Below are positions 756-6,296 of a stretch of DNA of 6,296 nt, piece by piece. Source of the stretch: a virus (lineage: Duplodnaviria; Heunggongvirae; Uroviricota; Caudoviricetes); the IMG/VR virus record IMGVR_UViG_2663762839_000014. One strand, 5' to 3'. The notes under the pieces were generated by a model that was not told the origin of the DNA, did not search any database, and saw nothing but the letters and a program-made list of their open reading frames with translations. A program made the translations under genes and the position numbers. The number at the start of each line of letters is the position of its first letter. Position 1 is the first letter of the stretch.

Positions 756-2222
756 ATGCTACGTATCGCTAAAGAAGCTCTGACGTTTGACGACGTTCTC
801 CTCGTTCCTGCTCATTCTACCGTTCTGCCGAATACTGCTGACCTCAGCACCCAGCTGACGAAAACTATTCGTCTGAATATCCCTATGCTTTCCGCAGCAA
901 TGGATACCGTAACGGAAGCGCGCCTGGCTATTGCTCTGGCTCAGGAAGGCGGTATCGGCTTTATCCACAAAAACATGTCCATTGAACGCCAGGCAGAAGA
1001 AGTTCGCCGTGTGAAAAAACACGAATCTGGTGTGGTAACTGATCCGCAGACTGTTCTGCCAACCACGACGCTGCGCGAAGTGAAAGAACTGACCGAGCGT
1101 AACGGTTTTGCGGGCTATCCGGTCGTTACCGAAGAAAACGAACTGGTGGGTATTATCACCGGTCGTGACGTGCGTTTTGTTACCGACCTGAACCAGCCGG
1201 TTAGCGTTTACATGACGCCGAAAGAGCGTCTGGTCACCGTGCGTGAAGGTGAAGCCCGTGAAGTGGTGCTGGCAAAAATGCACGAAAAACGCGTTGAAAA
1301 AGCGCTGGTGGTTGATGACGAATTCCACCTGATCGGCATGATCACCGTGAAAGATTTCCAGAAAGCGGAACGTAAACCGAACGCCTGTAAAGACGAGCAA
1401 GGCCGTCTGCGTGTTGGTGCTGCAGTTGGCGCAGGTGCGGGTAACGAAGAGCGTGTTGACGCGCTGGTTGCCGCTGGCGTTGACGTTCTGCTGATCGACT
1501 CCTCCCACGGTCACTCAGAAGGCGTTTTGCAGCGTATCCGTGAAACCCGTGCTAAATATCCGGATCTGCAAATCATCGGCGGCAACGTGGCAACAGCTGC
1601 AGGTGCACGCGCTCTGGCAGAAGCTGGTTGCAGCGCGGTTAAAGTCGGTATCGGCCCTGGCTCTATCTGTACGACTCGTATCGTGACTGGCGTAGGTGTT
1701 CCGCAGATCACTGCCGTTGCTGACGCAGTTGAAGCGCTGGAAGGCACCGGCATTCCGGTTATCGCTGACGGCGGTATCCGTTTCTCTGGCGACATCGCCA
1801 AAGCTATCGCCGCTGGCGCAAGCGCGGTAATGGTGGGTTCCATGCTGGCAGGTACTGAAGAATCTCCGGGTGAAATTGAACTCTACCAGGGCCGTTCTTA
1901 CAAATCTTACCGTGGGATGGGCTCTCTGGGCGCGATGTCCAAAGGTTCCTCTGACCGTTATTTCCAGAGCGATAACGCTGCCGACAAACTGGTGCCGGAA
2001 GGTATCGAAGGTCGCGTAGCTTATAAAGGTCGCCTGAAAGAGATCATTCACCAGCAGATGGGCGGCCTGCGCTCCTGTATGGGTTTGACCGGCTGTGGTA
2101 CTATCGACGAACTGCGTACTAAAGCGGAGTTTGTACGTATCAGCAGTGCGGGCATTCAGGAAAGCCACGTTCACGACGTGACCATTACTAAAGAGTCCCC
2201 GAACTACCGTCTGGGCTCCTGA
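756..2222 (+). CDS. guaB: IMP dehydrogenase (488 aa)
   Basis: The six-frame ORF 687..2222 contains [23 protein letters not shown]... from the internal ATG at 756, matching E. coli GuaB as I recall it, including the catalytic-loop region [11 protein letters not shown] and the CBS-domain insert. The 23 codons upstream of 756 overlap the promoter and are rejected as the start. Confidence 0.97.
961..969 (+). promoter_or_regulatory. Consensus DnaA box (TTATCCACA) inside the guaB coding region
   Basis: Exact 9-mer TTATCCACA about 200 bp downstream of the guaB start. I recall literature on DnaA-dependent regulation of gua transcription through such a box, but a single 9-mer can also occur by chance. 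Confidence 0.5.
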
Positions 2223-2290: not shown

Positions 2291-3868
2291 ATGACGGAAA
2301 ACATTCATAAGCATCGCATCCTCATTCTGGACTTCGGTTCTCAGTACACTCAACTGGTTGCGCGCCGCGTGCGTGAGCTGGGTGTTTACTGCGAACTGTG
2401 GGCGTGGGATGTGACAGAAGCACAAATTCGTGACTTCAATCCAAGCGGCATTATTCTTTCCGGCGGCCCGGAAAGTACTACTGAAGAAAACAGCCCGCGT
2501 GCGCCGCAGTATGTCTTTGAAGCAGGCGTACCGGTATTCGGCGTTTGCTATGGCATGCAGACCATGGCAATGCAGTTGGGCGGTCACGTTGAAGCCTCTA
2601 ACGAACGTGAATTTGGCTACGCGCAGGTTGAAGTCGTAAACGACAGCGCACTGGTTCGCGGTATCGAAGATGCGCTGACCGCAGACGGTAAACCGCTGCT
2701 CGATGTCTGGATGAGCCACGGCGATAAAGTTACCGCTATCCCGTCCGACTTCATCACCGTAGCCAGCACCGAAAGCTGCCCGTTTGCCATTATGGCTAAC
2801 GAAGAAAAACGCTTCTATGGCGTACAGTTCCACCCGGAAGTGACTCACACCCGCCAGGGTATGCGCATGCTGGAGCGTTTTGTGCGTGATATCTGCCAGT
2901 GTGAAGCCCTGTGGACGCCAGCGAAAATTATCGACGATGCTGTAGCTCGCATCCGCGAGCAGGTAGGCGACGATAAAGTCATCCTCGGCCTCTCTGGTGG
3001 TGTGGATTCCTCCGTAACCGCAATGCTGCTGCACCGCGCTATCGGTAAAAACCTGACTTGCGTATTCGTCGACAACGGCCTGCTGCGTCTCAACGAAGCA
3101 GAGCAGGTTCTGGATATGTTTGGCGATCACTTTGGTCTGAACATTGTTCACGTTCCGGCAGAAGATCGCTTCCTGTCAGCGCTGGCTGGCGAAAACGATC
3201 CGGAAGCAAAACGTAAAATCATCGGTCGCGTTTTCGTTGAAGTATTCGATGAAGAAGCGCTGAAACTGGAAGACGTGAAGTGGCTGGCACAGGGCACCAT
3301 CTACCCTGACGTTATCGAATCTGCGGCGTCTGCAACCGGTAAAGCACACGTCATCAAATCTCACCACAACGTGGGCGGCCTGCCGAAAGAGATGAAGATG
3401 GGCCTGGTTGAACCGCTGAAAGAGCTGTTCAAAGACGAAGTGCGTAAGATTGGTCTGGAGCTGGGCCTGCCATACGACATGCTCTACCGTCACCCGTTCC
3501 CGGGACCGGGCCTCGGCGTTCGTGTACTGGGCGAAGTGAAGAAAGAGTACTGTGACCTGCTGCGCCGTGCTGATGCCATCTTCATTGAAGAGCTGCGTAA
3601 AGCGGATCTGTACGACAAAGTCAGCCAGGCGTTCACTGTCTTCCTGCCGGTACGTTCTGTTGGCGTAATGGGCGATGGTCGTAAATACGACTGGGTTGTC
3701 TCTCTGCGTGCTGTCGAAACCATCGACTTCATGACCGCACACTGGGCGCACCTGCCGTACGATTTCCTCGGTCGCGTTTCCAACCGCATTATCAATGAAG
3801 TGAACGGTATTTCCCGCGTGGTGTATGACATCAGCGGCAAGCCGCCAGCTACCATTGAGTGGGAATGA
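2291..3868 (+). CDS. guaA: GMP synthase, glutamine-hydrolysing (525 aa)
   Basis: ORF 2291..3868 translates to [41 protein letters not shown]..., ending ...[10 protein letters not shown], matching E. coli GuaA. It contains the glutamine amidotransferase region (GVCYGMQ) and the ATP pyrophosphatase P-loop SGGVDSS. Confidence 0.97.
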
Positions 3869-3916
3869 TTAACAGCTAACTCATAGCAAATCATTCCTAT
3901 TCAGATGCCAACTCAA

Positions 3917-3947
3917 CCCTCTGTTTTTGCAGGGGGTTTTTGTTTTT
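3917..3947 (+). terminator. Rho-independent terminator of the guaBA operon
   Basis: CCCTCTG-tttttg-CAGGGGG forms a 7-bp stem with one G-U pair (3917..3936), followed immediately by TTTTTGTTTTT (3937..3947), about 50 bp after the guaA stop. Confidence 0.75.
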
Positions 3948-4003
3948 ATGTATTCATTTCTATTCACTCTATACCATATTTTTCGGCGGTACAGGTGACG
4001 GTA

Positions 4004-4018
4004 TTACCTTAAAGGTAT
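4004..4018 (+). promoter_or_regulatory. Dyad motif copy a: TTACC-ttAAA-GGTAt, upstream of the integrase stub
   Basis: One of three same-orientation copies of TTACC-nnAAA-GGTA(A); the others are at 4960..4974 and 5340..5354. It lies about 45 bp upstream of the integrase GTG start and overlaps a TATACT -10-like hexamer at 4016..4021. Confidence 0.4.
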
Positions 4019-4060
4019 ACTCTCATGCCGTCATGAAAATGGTTTCTATACGGGTGAATT

Positions 4061-4210
4061 GTGCTTACCGATACAAAATTAAAAAACCTCAAGCCGCAGG
4101 ACAAACTGTACAAAGTCTCCGATCGTGACGGGCTGTATGTGGCTGTGCTTACGTCAGGTACGGTCTCGTTTCGCTATGACTACCGTATCAACGGTCGCCG
4201 CGAAACACTG
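4061..4210 (+). pseudogene. Tyrosine recombinase (P4-family integrase) N-terminal stub, about 50 codons
   Basis: From the GTG at 4061 the translation is LTDTKLKNLKPQDKLYKVSDRDGLYVAVLTSGTVSFRYDYRINGRRETL, the conserved N-terminal arm-binding region of P4-like integrases. After about codon 50 the frame continues as unrelated sequence to a stop at 4276, and no catalytic domain is present in any frame. Confidence 0.7.
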
Positions 4211-4690
4211 GTAGCCGGGCTTCAGCGGGGCACTGTAGGTTTTGTTCTCTATCTTCATTGCCTGCATCACTGCTGACGCCGTGGCGTTGGCTACTTGGTC
4301 GGCAACCATCTTTATGCGTTCTTCCTGCGGGAGCGAGTTTTTAATGTAACTTCCGGTGCGGCGGATCTGAGGAAGAACCTCACCTGTAACCCATTTACGA
4401 AAGCGGTAGGGGATAGTGCCTGGTGTTACTGCATCGCGGCAGCGGAGGATCAGTGTGTAGAGGCCTGACTCGGAGATGATGATCGATTCTTGCTCACCGC
4501 CAGGGGTGTCGGTTGAAGCGACGCCCTTCTCATCATCATCAAGTTTTCGAACAGTATCTCGATGGTTTGCTATGCCTATAGCCCGACAAACATCTGAAGC
4601 GATAAACCATGGCTCACCATTAATGACGATTACTCGTATATCGGCTTGGGATTCGAAAGAAAAAATGGACGTGCTTTTTGTAGCTGTCAT
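4154..4690 (-). CDS. Bro-N domain protein (phage antirepressor-like), 178 aa; C-terminal ~19 codons read antisense through the integrase stub
   Basis: Residues about 10-115 (FSFESQADIRVIVINGEPWFIASDVCRAIGIANHRDTVRKLDDDEKG...IISESGLYTLILRCRDAV...FRKWVTGEVLPQIRRTGSY) match the Bro-N signature. RBS AAGG lies 8 nt upstream of the ATG at 4690. Confidence 0.75.
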   Translation of the reverse strand: MTATKSTSIFSFESQADIRVIVINGEPWFIASDVCRAIGIANHRDTVRKLDDDEKGVASTDTPGGEQESIIISESGLYTLILRCRDAVTPGTIPYRFRKWVTGEVLPQIRRTGSYIKNSLPQEERIKMVADQVANATASAVMQAMKIENKTYSAPLKPGYQCFAATVDTVVIAKRDRT

Positions 4691-4723
4691 AGTGGTTACC
4701 TTTTAGTCTGGTTAATCACCACT

Positions 4724-4739
4724 ACCGACGCCAATCGGT
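4724..4739 (-). other. Stem-loop ACCGA-cgccaa-TCGGT (plus-strand reading), sharing its loop with the hairpin at 4887..4904
   Basis: 5-bp perfect stem with a 6-nt loop. The 10-mer GACGCCAATC (4727..4736) is repeated exactly at 4891..4900. Lies in the presumed leader of the Bro-N gene. Confidence 0.3.
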
Positions 4740-4847
4740 TGGTGGTGAACTGCGCAGGGTTGGCGTAACCGGCTAAAAGGACCCGGCGCACCTTTCGGTG
4801 CCCCCACACAGCCCACCATAATACGAATGTGACCGTGCTATACGCAT

Positions 4848-4867
4848 AAAAAAACCGCTTGCGCGGT
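4848..4867 (-). terminator. Rho-independent terminator on the minus strand
   Basis: On the minus strand, ACCGC-gcaa-GCGGU (5-bp stem, GNRA-type loop; plus 4854..4867) is followed by seven U (plus A-run 4848..4854). Positioned to terminate transcripts coming from the 85-codon ORF or the candidate small RNA. Confidence 0.6.
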
Positions 4868-4886
4868 GAATGCGCCTTTTAGTAAT

Positions 4887-4904
4887 CCGGGACGCCAATC
4901 CCGG
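4887..4904 (-). other. Stem-loop CCGGGA-cgccaa-TCCCGG (plus-strand reading), sharing its loop with the hairpin at 4724..4739
   Basis: 6-bp perfect stem with the identical CGCCAA loop. Lies inside the candidate small RNA. Confidence 0.3.
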
Positions 4905-4959
4905 CACTGGCAAAATCCAGTGCCCGATTACTATGGCACAAGAGGAGTGCGATGTAAAT

Positions 4960-4974
4960 TTACCGCAAAGGTAA
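4960..4974 (+). promoter_or_regulatory. Dyad motif copy b: TTACC-gcAAA-GGTAA, overlapping the -10/+1 of the putative minus-strand promoter
   Basis: Perfect 7-bp arms with flanks (ATTTACC / GGTAAAT, 4958..4976). Same core and orientation as the copies at 4004 and 5340. Confidence 0.4.
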
Positions 4975-5002
4975 ATATAAGCACTCCACTTGGTAATTGC
5001 AA
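4974..5002 (-). promoter_or_regulatory. Putative sigma70 promoter on the minus strand (TTGCAA - 17 bp - TATATT)
   Basis: -35 at 5002..4997 and -10 at 4979..4974 with a 17-bp spacer, starting directly after the stop codon of the 85-codon ORF. Hexamer match only; a chance occurrence in AT-rich DNA is possible. Confidence 0.3.
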
Positions 5003-5005
5003 ACC

Positions 5006-5263
5006 TTATATGGTTTGTTTTCGTAATTGTTCGGCACAATAGTCGAGATGTGTTTGCAGATCCTGCATAGACATCTGTGAGCTGGTGACGTAGTTAATCA
5101 GTGCAGTCAGTTCGGCAAGTGGGCCATCGACATTAAATCCATCCTTATCGAGATCCCGGAGTAATTTCATCAAGTGCGATCCCTCCACCAGTGACCTGAC
5201 GCCTCCCGGCGTGTGAATCCTTTCGGTAAATCCGTCTTCCAGTGGATAGTGATACTGCTGCAT
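5006..5263 (-). CDS. Hypothetical 85-aa acidic protein, predicted SOS (LexA)-regulated
   Basis: ORF with ATG at 5263, SD GGAG 8 nt upstream (plus 5272..5275), and a near-consensus LexA box 20-40 bp upstream of the ATG. No family recognised from the sequence MQQYHYPLEDGFTERIHTPGG... Coding status is inferred from the RBS and box context only. Confidence 0.5.
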   Translation of the reverse strand: MQQYHYPLEDGFTERIHTPGGVRSLVEGSHLMKLLRDLDKDGFNVDGPLAELTALINYVTSSQMSMQDLQTHLDYCAEQLRKQTI

Positions 5264-5282
5264 CTTATCTTCTCCATGTAAT

Positions 5283-5302
5283 AACTGTATATTTATACAG
5301 TA
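5283..5302. promoter_or_regulatory. LexA (SOS) box AACTGTATATTTATACAGTA
   Basis: CTGT-N8-ACAG with an A/T-rich spacer; 18 of 20 positions match the E. coli consensus TACTGTATATATATACAGTA. It lies in the divergent region between the 85-codon ORF (minus) and the tailspike gene (plus), and overlaps a TATAAA -10-like hexamer in the minus orientation. Confidence 0.75.
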
Positions 5303-5303
5303 T

Positions 5304-5318
5304 CAAACAATTTGTTTG
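5304..5318. promoter_or_regulatory. 15-bp palindrome CAAACAA-t-TTGTTTG adjacent to the LexA box
   Basis: Perfect 7-bp inverted arms around a single central base, immediately next to the SOS box and over the expected -35/spacer region of the minus-strand promoter. Candidate operator for a dimeric regulator. Confidence 0.3.
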
Positions 5319-5339
5319 CTATCCAGCACGTTTTGCGAA

Positions 5340-5354
5340 TTACCTGAAAGGTAA
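5340..5354 (+). promoter_or_regulatory. Dyad motif copy c: TTACC-tgAAA-GGTAA, in the divergent regulatory region
   Basis: Perfect 6-bp arms with flanks (ATTACC / GGTAAT, 5339..5355). Same core and orientation as the copies at 4004 and 4960. Confidence 0.4.
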
Positions 5355-5458
5355 TGTCTATTCGTGTTCACAGTATTTCTATACATATATGGTTTTTAGG
5401 GTAATAGAATAACCAGATGTGCGGCGCAACGGGTGCTGCGACTATCTGGAGATTTAAC

Positions 5459-6296
5459 ATGACGGTCTCAACCGAAATTGACCACAACGAATACACCGGT
5501 AACGGTGTTACAACGATATACCCTTATACCTTTAGGATTTTCCAGAAATCTGATTTAGTAGTGCAGGTTGTTGACCTGAACGAGAACATCACAGAGCTGA
5601 TTCTTGACACTGATTACATAGTTACTGGGCTGGAGGATACAATGGTGGCAATATAATTCTGTCGAAGGCATTGGTTAGCGGTTATCAGATTTCTATATCA
5701 CGAGAGCTTCCGGTTACGCAGGAAACTGATTTGCGTAATCAGGGTAAGTTCTTTGCAGAAGTGCATGAGGATGCTTTTGATAAGCTAACGATGCTGATCC
5801 AGCAGGTTCGAAGTTGGTTTAGCTTGGCGCTGCGCAAGCCGTCAAGTATTGCTAACTGGTACGATGCACTAAATAATTACATCCGTAATCTGAGAGACCC
5901 TAGAGAACCTCAAGATGCAGCCACGAAAAATTATGTTGATACTCTGGCTGTTGGAAATTTCATTCGAACATTACGTGTACCTGAACCTGTCAGGCAGTTC
6001 CCTGATGCAGCAATACGCGCCAACAAGATTCCTGCCTTCGACAGTTCCGGCAATCCGATTGTGGTTTTGCCTCCATCTGGTTCTGCTTCTGACATTATGA
6101 TAGAACTTGCTAAACCAACAGGTGCTGACCATATTGGTACATCATCAGGTGAAACTGTGCAGCATGTAATCGACCGACTTTATCTTCCAAATGATCCCCG
6201 TGGTTATGGCGCACTAACAGAGTCAACAGATAATACCCAAGCGTTCATTCAGGCGATTTATGCTTCACCTAGTGGAATTGTCATAAGGGGAGGTAT
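5459..6296 (+). pseudogene. Phage tailspike / tail-fibre protein, 5' part, interrupted by a -1 frameshift in a G-run at 5627..5629; continues beyond the window
   Basis: From ATG 5459 (SD GGAG 8 nt upstream) the frame reads MTVSTEIDHNEYTGNGVTTIYPYTFRIF...DYIVTG and stops at 5654. The adjacent frame is open from 5614 to the window end (over 225 codons: AGGYNGGNIILSKALVSGYQISISRELPVTQETDLRNQGKFF...). The two frames join if GGG at 5627..5629 was originally GGGG. The last part (PRGYGALTESTDNTQAFIQAI) resembles the start of a pectate-lyase-fold depolymerase domain. Could be a true pseudogene or a homopolymer sequencing error. Confidence 0.7.

Follow-up and report, generated by a model that had tools for sequence, protein, structure and literature searches.

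The immunity systems with which the present locus can be compared are those of the temperate podoviruses epsilon15 and SPC32H and those of P1 and lambda. In P1 a single repressor, C1, acts at numerous operators dispersed upstream of late and accessory operons, and the promoter of its immI operon (c4 RNA–icd–ant) is overlapped by the C1 operator Op51. In the lambdoid switches of the textbooks Cro and CI use shared operators, and the Gifsy antirepressors have been described as acting in trans on other phages. The ant gene of SPC32H is reportedly under LexA control. Within the Rep–Ant switch of SPC32H (Kim & Ryu 2013; Kim et al. 2016; PDB 5D50, 5D4Z), Rep is described (PMC9638917, PMC9986798) as a tetramer that binds palindromic sites and is released by Ant, which according to PMC9638917 binds the repressor protein and not DNA. 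For epsilon15, the GenBank record AY150271.2 (Kropinski et al. 2007) carries seven protein_bind features labelled 'repressor, lysogeny', all of the form (A)TTACC-N5-GGTAA(T), the seven annotated sites being perfect 16–17-mers only.

The analyses presented here concern one whole draft contig (CDRI01000453.1; 6.3 kb), hereafter the window (6296 bp), which carries three copies of the same dyad:

4004–4018, strandless dyad: copy a, TTACCTTAAAGGTAT, with one mismatch (right half GGTAT)
4960–4974, strandless dyad: copy b, TTACCGCAAAGGTAA, perfect
5340–5354, strandless dyad: copy c, TTACCTGAAAGGTAA, perfect

We consider it very likely, from comparison with related phages, that the three dyads are operators for the immunity repressor of epsilon15/phiV10/SPC32H-like temperate podoviruses, Rep, a non-cleavable protein that is inactivated by an antirepressor. 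The preliminary description of this DNA was right to propose an element-encoded helix-turn-helix regulator that coordinates several promoters; the new regulon that it implied falls away, since the motif is an annotated repressor site in epsilon15, and the repeats, judged by sequence, are real but known.

All three copies are intergenic, and their coordinates and sequences proved to be exactly as first described. Copies b and c have the perfect consensus (A)TTACC-N5-GGTAA(T), and in copy a the left half is perfect. No other match to TTACC-N5-GGTAA with up to one mismatch occurs in the 6296 bp; within the window the motif is confined to the island, as had been proposed, and a scan of the xseA–guaBA part, thought by eye to be free of complete copies, found none. 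In dinucleotide shuffles 0.09 matches were expected against the three observed, and three or more were reached in 0 of 200. A sample of E. coli K-12 (150 kb) held one perfect and seven one-mismatch matches, a rate that gives an expectation of 0.016 perfect matches in the 2.44-kb island (P ~1e-4 for at least two).

The island itself is identified by homology as what is left of an epsilon15/phiV10-like podovirus (genus Uetakevirus) inserted at the guaA 3' end, with the following landmarks:

3854–3870, + strand: attL core, ATTGAGTGGGAATGATT, at the 3' end of guaA, where phage-derived DNA begins
4061–4220, + strand: integrase stub, the ~53 first codons of a P4-type integrase with its Arm DNA-binding domain (Pfam Arm-DNA-bind_3, E=1.5e-10)
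4210–4220, strandless: deletion junction, 11 bp of microhomology, with ~31.8 kb of prophage missing
5459–6296, + strand: tail-fibre/tailspike gene, frameshifted between ~5552 and 5628 and cut by the contig end

Homology to K-12 stops at 3870 and homology to the phage attP–int region begins at 3854, the attL 17-mer having been reported as the attP/attB of ZX5, phiV10 and epsilon15 (PMC9782041). Positions 3854–4220 match phiV10 26720–27086 (96% identical), and from 4210 onward the window matches phiV10 from 19750 onward. The missing ~31.8 kb comprises, by comparison with phiV10, rep, the early, replication and packaging genes and most structural genes, and a microhomology-mediated deletion fused int at codon ~53 with the Bro-N gene at codon ~159, taking out rep. 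The independent Logan assembly made from run ERR738831 contains an identical junction; an exact-match scan of a species-representative genome collection gave no match to it, and it was not contiguous in any complete E. coli genome searched. Further decay is seen in the tail-fibre gene, where tblastn with phiV10 p25 places aa 1–31 in one frame and aa 58–227 in another. No Rep- or Cro-like coding sequence was found in the window (one draft contig), and every intact relative examined encodes rep. Since the ~31.8-kb deletion removed rep, the three sites appear to be orphan operators; the earlier suggestion that the regulator is absent from the window, being encoded beyond it or lost, is in agreement with the position of rep in the deleted segment, between the integrase stub and the Bro-N gene.

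In an unbiased count of all 5-N5-5 dyads, TTACC ranks first in 7 of 7 Uetakevirus genomes, with 8–11 perfect copies per ~40-kb genome against a Markov expectation of ~0.01, any other dyad being present at most twice; in each of three K-12 chunks (150 kb in total) it lies outside the four commonest dyads listed. Two approaches put forward in the preliminary description, a genome-wide motif search and footprinting across homologous elements, favour the motif, which is enriched in the seven relatives and rare in the K-12 sample, and whose half-sites are invariant at copies a, b and c while the spacers vary. According to the gene tables of phiV10, epsilon15 and SPC32H, 28 of 29 perfect copies are intergenic, though ~93% of each genome is coding, and the sole exception lies within the annotated terminase-small-subunit CDS of phiV10, where epsilon15 and SPC32H have intergenic DNA. 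The copies in these three genomes cluster around rep, which they flank, and others precede int, late operons and antirepressor modules; the same distances from the same genes recur, and the 10 perfect copies of SPC32H stand at the same genomic positions. Operator spacers across Uetakevirus genomes are 74% A+T. The common strand and the AAA-ending spacer singled out at the outset hold for the three window copies but are not kept in the relatives, where such a spacer occurs at just 11 of the 58 perfect sites counted in six phage genomes. A full-text literature search that combined the half-sites ATTACC and GGTAAT with phage and repressor retrieved only papers on other subjects.

Copy c (TTACC-TGAAA-GGTAA) lies in the interval that separates ant from the tail-fibre gene and is homologous in position to one of the annotated repressor sites of epsilon15, the protein_bind feature 19895–19911. 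Its counterparts in phiV10, epsilon15 and SPC32H lie 84 bp upstream of ant and 112–114 bp upstream of the tailspike gene. Its surroundings contain:

5006–5263, − strand: ant, encoding an intact 85-aa SPC32H-type antirepressor (PDB 5D50 chain E 'Anti-repressor protein', E=4.1e-47; phrog_450)
5285–5300, strandless: LexA box, CTGTATATTTATACAG, in the ant promoter region, read from the sequence
5382–5410, + strand: promoter-like element of the tail-fibre gene, TACATA-17-TAGAAT, inside a box common to the three late operator regions (alignment)

The 85-aa protein aligns almost identically with SPC32H Ant (residues 2–84), and we identify it by this homology as the SOS/LexA-controlled antirepressor Ant of the SPC32H type, the LexA box before ant being a further likeness to that phage; within the box (CTGT-N8-ACAG), CTGTAT and ACAGTA are invariant in seven phages. 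A promoter overlapping copy c was sought in the window and in SPC32H and none was predicted, the nearest predicted promoter beginning ~35 bp downstream of the site; the SPC32H homologue of the tail-fibre element reads TTCATA-17-TAGAAT. The predicted tail-fibre start lies ~70 bp, and the presumed ant start ~77 bp, from the centre of copy c, which stands upstream of both, so that promoter occlusion in its simple form is not evident. The promoter-like positions originally claimed for all three copies are borne out in part, for copy b (predicted promoters) and copy a (a -10-like hexamer), but not for copy c, which overlaps no predicted core promoter.

Copy b (TTACC-GCAAA-GGTAA) is found at the predicted promoter of an isrK/C4/Bro-N antirepressor operon, for which we recognize these features:

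4154–4690, − strand: truncated Bro-N antirepressor gene (Pfam Bro-N, E=6e-21; PHROG anti-repressor Ant families)
4738–4823, − strand: C4 antisense RNA gene (Rfam RF01695, 75.7 bits vs gathering score 45)
4848–4923, − strand: isrK-type RNA, a1/b1 region (Rfam RF01394, 60 bits vs gathering score 50)
4930–4958, − strand: predicted isrK promoter, TTTACA-17-TGnCATAGT, with copy b abutting the -35 (centre ~-44)
4974–5002, − strand: predicted upstream sigma-70 promoter, TTGCAA-17-TATATT, a consensus match only, also present in phiV10

Copy b follows the -10 of the predicted upstream promoter and would cover ~-7 to +8 of it, while the predicted TTTACA-17-CATAGT promoter fits the isrK 5' end at 4923 (Rfam model start); a terminator scan places a terminator-like hairpin in the isrK-type RNA gene at 4867–4854. 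The dyad sits within a longer palindrome, GGAGTGC...GCACTCC (4944–4987). Its half-sites are invariant in phiV10, ZX5, TL-2011b and Tyrion and its spacer varies: that of phiV10 (TTTGC) is the inverted form, and Tyrion has a sequence of its own (TGTGA). The RNA genes lie upstream of, and co-oriented with, the Bro-N gene, as an antisense-RNA-controlled antirepressor module resembling P1 immI. Considering that homology with the C4/isrK modules of other phages ends inside isrK (query position ~217), leaving the operator outside, copy b belongs to the Uetakevirus backbone and not to the RNA module. The first 159 aa of the Bro-N protein are those of the 231-aa ZX5/TL-2011b Ant bar one substitution, after which come 19 unrelated residues in place of the lost Ant-like C-terminal domain; in the ZX5 Bro-N antirepressor the last 74 aa share 42% identity with the small Ant (E=1e-19). 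On these homologies the Bro-N protein is a second antirepressor, which in its intact form combines a Bro-N domain with an Ant-like C-terminal domain. This RNA-controlled second antirepressor is added by the E. coli relatives and is missing from SPC32H, and epsilon15, which has no isrK/C4/Bro-N module, has no equivalent of copy b.

Of the three sites copy a is the least certain: the dyad is degenerate and Rep-operator-like, with a right half that deviates (GGTATA vs GGTAAT). It is centred 50 bp upstream of the int start and overlaps a -10-like TATACT (4016–4021). It is possible, although we favour an operator, that this dyad resembles one by chance and instead belongs to an attP arm or to the int leader, as would an integrase arm-type site or an RNA hairpin. 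The sequence match by itself is not significant, because a single one-mismatch match in the island has a chance probability of ~0.11; a larger inverted repeat, TGACGGTAT...ATGCCGTCA (3996–4032), encloses the dyad; and the epsilon15 record, which omits this int-proximal degenerate site from its repressor features, annotates 'integrase' (26873–26882) and 'RNaseIII' (26874–26912) there. Moreover, since the whole attP–int region is uniformly conserved (86–91%), conservation of the half-sites is weak evidence. Against this reading, the same dyad with the same GGTAT deviation stands 50 bp upstream of int in phiV10, epsilon15 and SPC32H, and the site is kept in 6 of 6 relatives compared at that position, including ZX5 and Tyrion. 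The deviation creates the -10-like hexamer, itself conserved as TATACT/TATAAT, and in Klebsiella phage BUCT711 (~49 bp from the int start) three of five spacer bases differ while half-sites and flanks are unchanged, which is the pattern of proven-type operators.

The cognate regulator of the sites is, by homology, Rep, the main immunity repressor and a homologue of the SPC32H repressor, and what ties the motif to Rep is the GenBank annotation together with the genomic distribution. The phiV10 Rep matches the SPC32H repressor (5D50_A) with E=4e-42 and 42% identity and keeps the N-terminal NLVNRW segment; in the intact relatives Rep is likewise a homologue with 42% identity. All seven genomes share both the TTACC motif and this Rep segment; a relative in which a differing recognition segment goes with a differing dyad was sought among the seven and none was found. 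It is improbable that the small Cro-like protein divergent from rep (phiV10 p41/epsilon15 gp39), rather than Rep, is the main protein to recognize the motif: p41 does fall in a PHROG family of transcriptional repressors (phrog_35), and shared operators would have the lambdoid precedent, but the epsilon15 annotators gave the sites to the repressor, the sites before late, lysis and int genes are more to be expected of a repressor that maintains lysogeny than of a Cro acting early in lytic growth, and shared use would complement Rep rather than replace it.

More improbable still is binding by a protein still encoded in the island, either of the two candidates first named, the Bro-N protein and the 85-aa protein. 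Both genes adjoin copies b and c, and DNA binding has been suggested for Bro-N domains (PMC9782041); yet the 85-aa protein is Ant (5D50 chain E), whose partner is the repressor protein according to PMC9638917, and the Bro-N protein falls in antirepressor families. Furthermore, epsilon15, SPC32H and BUCT711 have no annotated Bro-N gene and carry 9–11 perfect sites (10–11 in the first two), mostly around rep, a motif distribution that contradicts both candidates. Chance palindromes in AT-rich foreign DNA, even though 150 kb of K-12 does hold one perfect copy, are ruled out by the statistics given above and by the conservation of positions in relatives whose spacers vary.

With Rep as the regulator, we propose that in an intact prophage its N-terminal helix-turn-helix domains read (A)TTACC-N5-GGTAA(T) at ~12–15 intergenic sites, two or three on each side of rep and the outliers before the terminase operon, the gp3/portal operon, the tailspike gene, the lysis cassette, int and the antirepressor modules. 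On DNA damage LexA would leave the box at 5285–5300 and the 85-aa Ant would be made, stripping Rep from the DNA so that all Rep-controlled promoters open together. In phiV10/ZX5-type phages copy b may additionally place the P1-immI-like isrK/C4/Bro-N antirepressor operon under Rep, and in the E. coli members the Rep regulon probably includes both the int promoter and this P1-like, RNA-controlled second antirepressor operon, which is more than the database record states. We infer that Rep binds these particular copies; in the remnant, unlike epsilon15 and SPC32H, the repressor gene is gone, and the orphan sites would act only with Rep supplied in trans by a related phage.

We tentatively suggest that in phiV10/ZX5-type phages Rep directly gates the second antirepressor operon through copy b, and that the remnant may act in trans; the literature searched contained no account of copy-b gating, of feedback or of trans action by such a remnant. 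If so, the small Ant made in the SOS response would free a Rep-repressed, RNA-damped second antirepressor, a positive feedback that would commit the switch. Since the remnant keeps an intact SOS-inducible ant together with orphan operators, it could act on related resident or incoming phages, by cross-induction or by titration of Rep, in the manner of the Gifsy antirepressors; such interference by a repressor-less remnant goes beyond the database record. For annotation, the motif marks the guaA-side island as a decayed epsilon15/phiV10-type prophage with leftover immunity operators.

The likeness to epsilon15 extends to consensus, genus and guaA integration site. That to P1 immI is one of arrangement, a C4-preceded antirepressor operon with the putative operator of the primary repressor over its promoter; the C1 operator, an asymmetric 17-mer, differs from the palindromic motif described here, and C1 itself bears no relation to Rep. 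As in lambda OL/OR, palindromes of ~17 bp form clusters that flank the repressor gene and occupy the interval between rep and the divergently oriented cro-like gene. In contrast to CI, Rep is inactivated by an antirepressor and not cleaved through RecA, and it binds as a tetramer in which, according to PMC9638917, the DNA-binding domain pairs come from different dimers. The Rep system also differs from lambda in its many outlying operators and in paired sites 62 bp apart, which are present in 7 of 7 genomes; this fixed spacing, an observation beyond the database record, fits binding by a tetramer.

The analyses presented here demonstrate that the TTACC-N5-GGTAA dyad is real and statistically solid, and that the regulatory reading of the preliminary description was broadly correct, but that the motif belongs to the known phage immunity (Rep–Ant) system and not to a separate regulon. 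Re-reading of the sequence placed the three copies where they had been reported:

4004-4018, copy a: TTACCTTAAAGGTAT
4960-4974, copy b: TTACCGCAAAGGTAA
5340-5354, copy c: TTACCTGAAAGGTAA

A scan of the window allowing one mismatch or fewer returned no further match; the xseA-guaB-guaA part (to position 3870; 98.2% identity with E. coli K-12), where no complete copy had been seen by eye, gave zero. Dinucleotide shuffles of the window yielded a mean of 0.09 matches and never reached three. A 150-kb sample of the K-12 chromosome has a single perfect match and seven with one mismatch; from this, P is ~1e-4 for two perfect copies in the 2.44-kb island. Copy a, with its one mismatch, has a chance probability of ~0.11 on the same sample and is by sequence alone not significant.

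The epsilon15 GenBank record (AY150271.2) carries seven 'protein_bind: repressor, lysogeny' features, all reading (A)TTACC-N5-GGTAA(T); one of them (19895-19911, lying between gp19 and the tailspike gene) is the homologue of copy c by position. The genome-wide check suggested earlier supports enrichment in relatives and rarity in K-12: whole-genome scans of phiV10, epsilon15, SPC32H, ZX5, Tyrion, TL-2011b and Klebsiella phage BUCT711 found 8-11 perfect copies in each, against ~0.01 expected under a first-order Markov model. By unbiased count, TTACC is the top-ranked 5-N5-5 dyad in 7/7 genomes, where every other dyad has at most two copies, and it is absent from the four commonest such dyads listed for any K-12 chunk. 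Compared with the gene tables of phiV10, epsilon15 and SPC32H, 28 of 29 perfect copies are intergenic, though ~93% of the DNA is coding; the exception lies within the annotated terminase-small-subunit CDS of phiV10, at a place that is intergenic in the other two. These three genomes carry Rep sites at the same places:

Downstream of rep, ahead of the early-left operon: two or three sites
Between rep and the divergent cro-like gene: two perfect sites (one in phiV10) and a one-mismatch copy
Ahead of the gene after the replication genes: two sites
Ahead of the terminase operon: a single site
98 bp before gp3: a single site
Ahead of both the tailspike gene (112-114 bp) and ant (84 bp): a single site
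113 bp before the lysis cassette: perfect in epsilon15, one-mismatch (TCACC) in phiV10 and SPC32H
50 bp before int: a degenerate site

The distance within site pairs, both those downstream of rep and those ahead of the gene following the replication module, is 62 bp in all seven genomes (63 once), about six helical turns, which fits one tetramer on two operators.

The gene that the site clusters flank is rep. The phiV10 protein, of 194 aa, matches the crystallised repressor of SPC32H (5D50_A; E=4e-42, 42% identity), and an N-terminal segment including NLVNRW is kept between them. According to secondary literature, SPC32H Rep is a tetramer on palindromic DNA, in which DNA-binding domains pair from different dimers, and tetrameric Ant takes it apart (PMC9638917; PMC9986798; bioRxiv 2025.11.27.690993). 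The earlier candidates for the regulator, the Bro-N protein and the 85-aa protein, do not survive: the 85-aa protein matches Ant (5D50_E, E=4.1e-47) and the Bro-N protein is placed in antirepressor families, therefore neither remaining island protein binds the sites; moreover, the full site set is present in epsilon15, SPC32H and BUCT711, all without an annotated Bro-N gene. The fallback that the regulator had been lost proves correct; no Rep- or Cro-like sequence is detectable in the window. The full-length Bro-N antirepressor (231 aa, ZX5/TL-2011b; 1078-1773 (-) in ZX5) has a C-terminal 74-aa domain that shares 42% identity with the small, LexA-controlled Ant (E=1e-19) and is therefore a Bro-N::Ant fusion.

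From 3854 on, the window is DNA of an epsilon15/phiV10-group phage (genus Uetakevirus). Positions 3854-4220 share 96% identity with the attP-int region of phiV10, ZX5 and TL-2011b, and 4210 onward matches the phage stretch that starts within the Bro-N antirepressor gene and reaches the tail-fibre gene. The two blocks share 11 bp at 4210-4220 and are separated in the phage by ~31.8 kb, so a microhomology-mediated deletion has taken int codon ~53 through Bro-N codon ~159; the Ant-like domain of the Bro-N protein is thereby removed, almost exactly at the domain boundary. The window is the whole draft contig CDRI01000453.1 of GCA_000946855.1. An independent assembly of run ERR738831 (Logan) shows the junction too. 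The att core and the features remaining in the island are:

3854-3870: 17-bp att core ATTGAGTGGGAATGATT, at the 3' end of guaA
Integrase stub: Arm DNA-binding domain
4154-4690 (-): truncated Bro-N antirepressor
RNA genes C4 and isrK: both above the Rfam gathering score
5006-5263 (-): intact 85-aa gene
5285-5300: LexA box
Tail-fibre gene: frameshifted (5552-5628) and interrupted by the contig end (6296)

The same core has been published as the attP/attB used by ZX5, phiV10 and epsilon15 at the guaA 3' end (PMC9782041).

Phylogenetic footprinting shows that the half-sites of all three copies are conserved in relatives (one base varies at copy c) while the spacers vary. Copy a is the weakest site: its right half reads GGTATA, against GGTAAT expected, and the deviation makes the -10-like TATACT/TATAAT whose overlap had been pointed out. 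The region is 86-91% conserved throughout, with integrase and RNase III features annotated by the epsilon15 authors. Position and deviation are unchanged in every relative compared there, and BUCT711 has changes at three of the five spacer bases, with identical half-sites and flanks. On balance we favour copy a as a real, probably weak, Rep site. It sits within an outer inverted repeat (TGACGGTAT...ATGCCGTCA, 3996-4032) that overlaps the integrase-binding and RNase III sites annotated in epsilon15.

Copy b is perfect, with half-sites invariant in phiV10, ZX5, TL-2011b and Tyrion; its spacer among these and the window is GCAAA, TTTGC (inverted) or TGTGA. Two predicted promoters match the promoter-like position claimed for it. 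It directly follows the -10 of a predicted promoter, TTGCAA-17-TATATT, found in phiV10 too, of which a bound protein would span about -7 to +8, and it adjoins the -35 of a second, whose start fits the isrK 5' end (4923). Similarity of the RNA module to APSE, SW-37 and Stx phages ends within isrK, short of the operator, which is therefore part of the Uetakevirus backbone and not of that module. Copy b lies within a longer palindrome, GGAGTGC...TTTACC-N5-GGTAAA...GCACTCC (window 4944-4987; phiV10 20484-20529), nearly perfect in phiV10, where the middle segment has the opposite orientation to that in the window; this suggests palindrome-mediated inversion. In BUCT711, a distant relative, perfect sites flank ant (16965 and 17377) although a DUF2335 protein gene downstream of ant replaces the isrK/C4/Bro-N module; the operator after ant thus seems to be a fixed slot controlling exchangeable cargo.

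Copy c is perfect; its variation among the seven phages is confined to the spacer and a single half-site base (TTACC/TCACC). Here the supposed promoter-like position is not confirmed: no predicted core promoter overlaps the copy. The nearest is a tail-fibre promoter-like element, TACATA-17-TAGAAT (5382-5410), whose SPC32H homologue scores too; copy c lies near -70 of this predicted promoter and at roughly -77 relative to the presumed ant start. Upstream contact and looping to copy b (at a distance of 380 bp) are among the ways in which it may act.

A shared orientation and AAA-ending spacer hold for the window's three copies but are not a property of the motif. Among 58 perfect sites in six related phage genomes, only 11 spacers end in AAA and four begin with TTT, and the shared ending is a coincidence of three sites; spacers are 74% A/T, with A or T at the central base in 57.

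We propose that in an intact prophage Rep at these sites would keep early, late, int and antirepressor promoters shut. LexA reportedly controls ant in SPC32H; on SOS induction LexA would leave the ant promoter, and Ant would then pull Rep off the DNA, opening the entire promoter set. The window's sites are orphaned because rep is lost, and would be occupied only if a related phage provided Rep in trans. Both the motif with its repressor assignment and the Rep–Ant switch are already known from the database record and literature. Absent from the epsilon15 annotation, and with no description that we could find, are the degenerate site near int, the operator at the isrK/C4/Bro-N operon, the Ant-like C-terminal domain that the Bro-N antirepressor carries, and the constant 62-bp pairing. 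It is plausible that a Rep-gated second antirepressor could provide positive feedback, and that the remnant's intact ant could act in trans on related phages.

Finally, a conserved box recurs in the three 'late' operator regions (those preceding gp3, tailspike and lysis genes), located ~30-50 bp downstream of the Rep site: C(C/A)ATAT(A/G)TGGTT followed, 6-7 nt on, by GTAATA or TGTATAAT. Part of the box is palindromic (CCATATATGG). It resembles a shared late-promoter element, possibly an activator site, and occurs at:

Window: 5383-5410
phiV10: ~3300, 20930, 24740
epsilon15: ~2980, 19950, 24760

The NCBI contig and the Logan assembly both stop at the same tail-fibre point (6296), and a repeat may be what breaks the assembly there, such as another related tail-fibre gene or prophage in the rest of the genome. 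The tail-fibre leader (5416-5452) contains a conserved hairpin for which RNAalifold predicts 11 pairs, three with compensatory changes between E. coli and Salmonella/Enterobacter phages.
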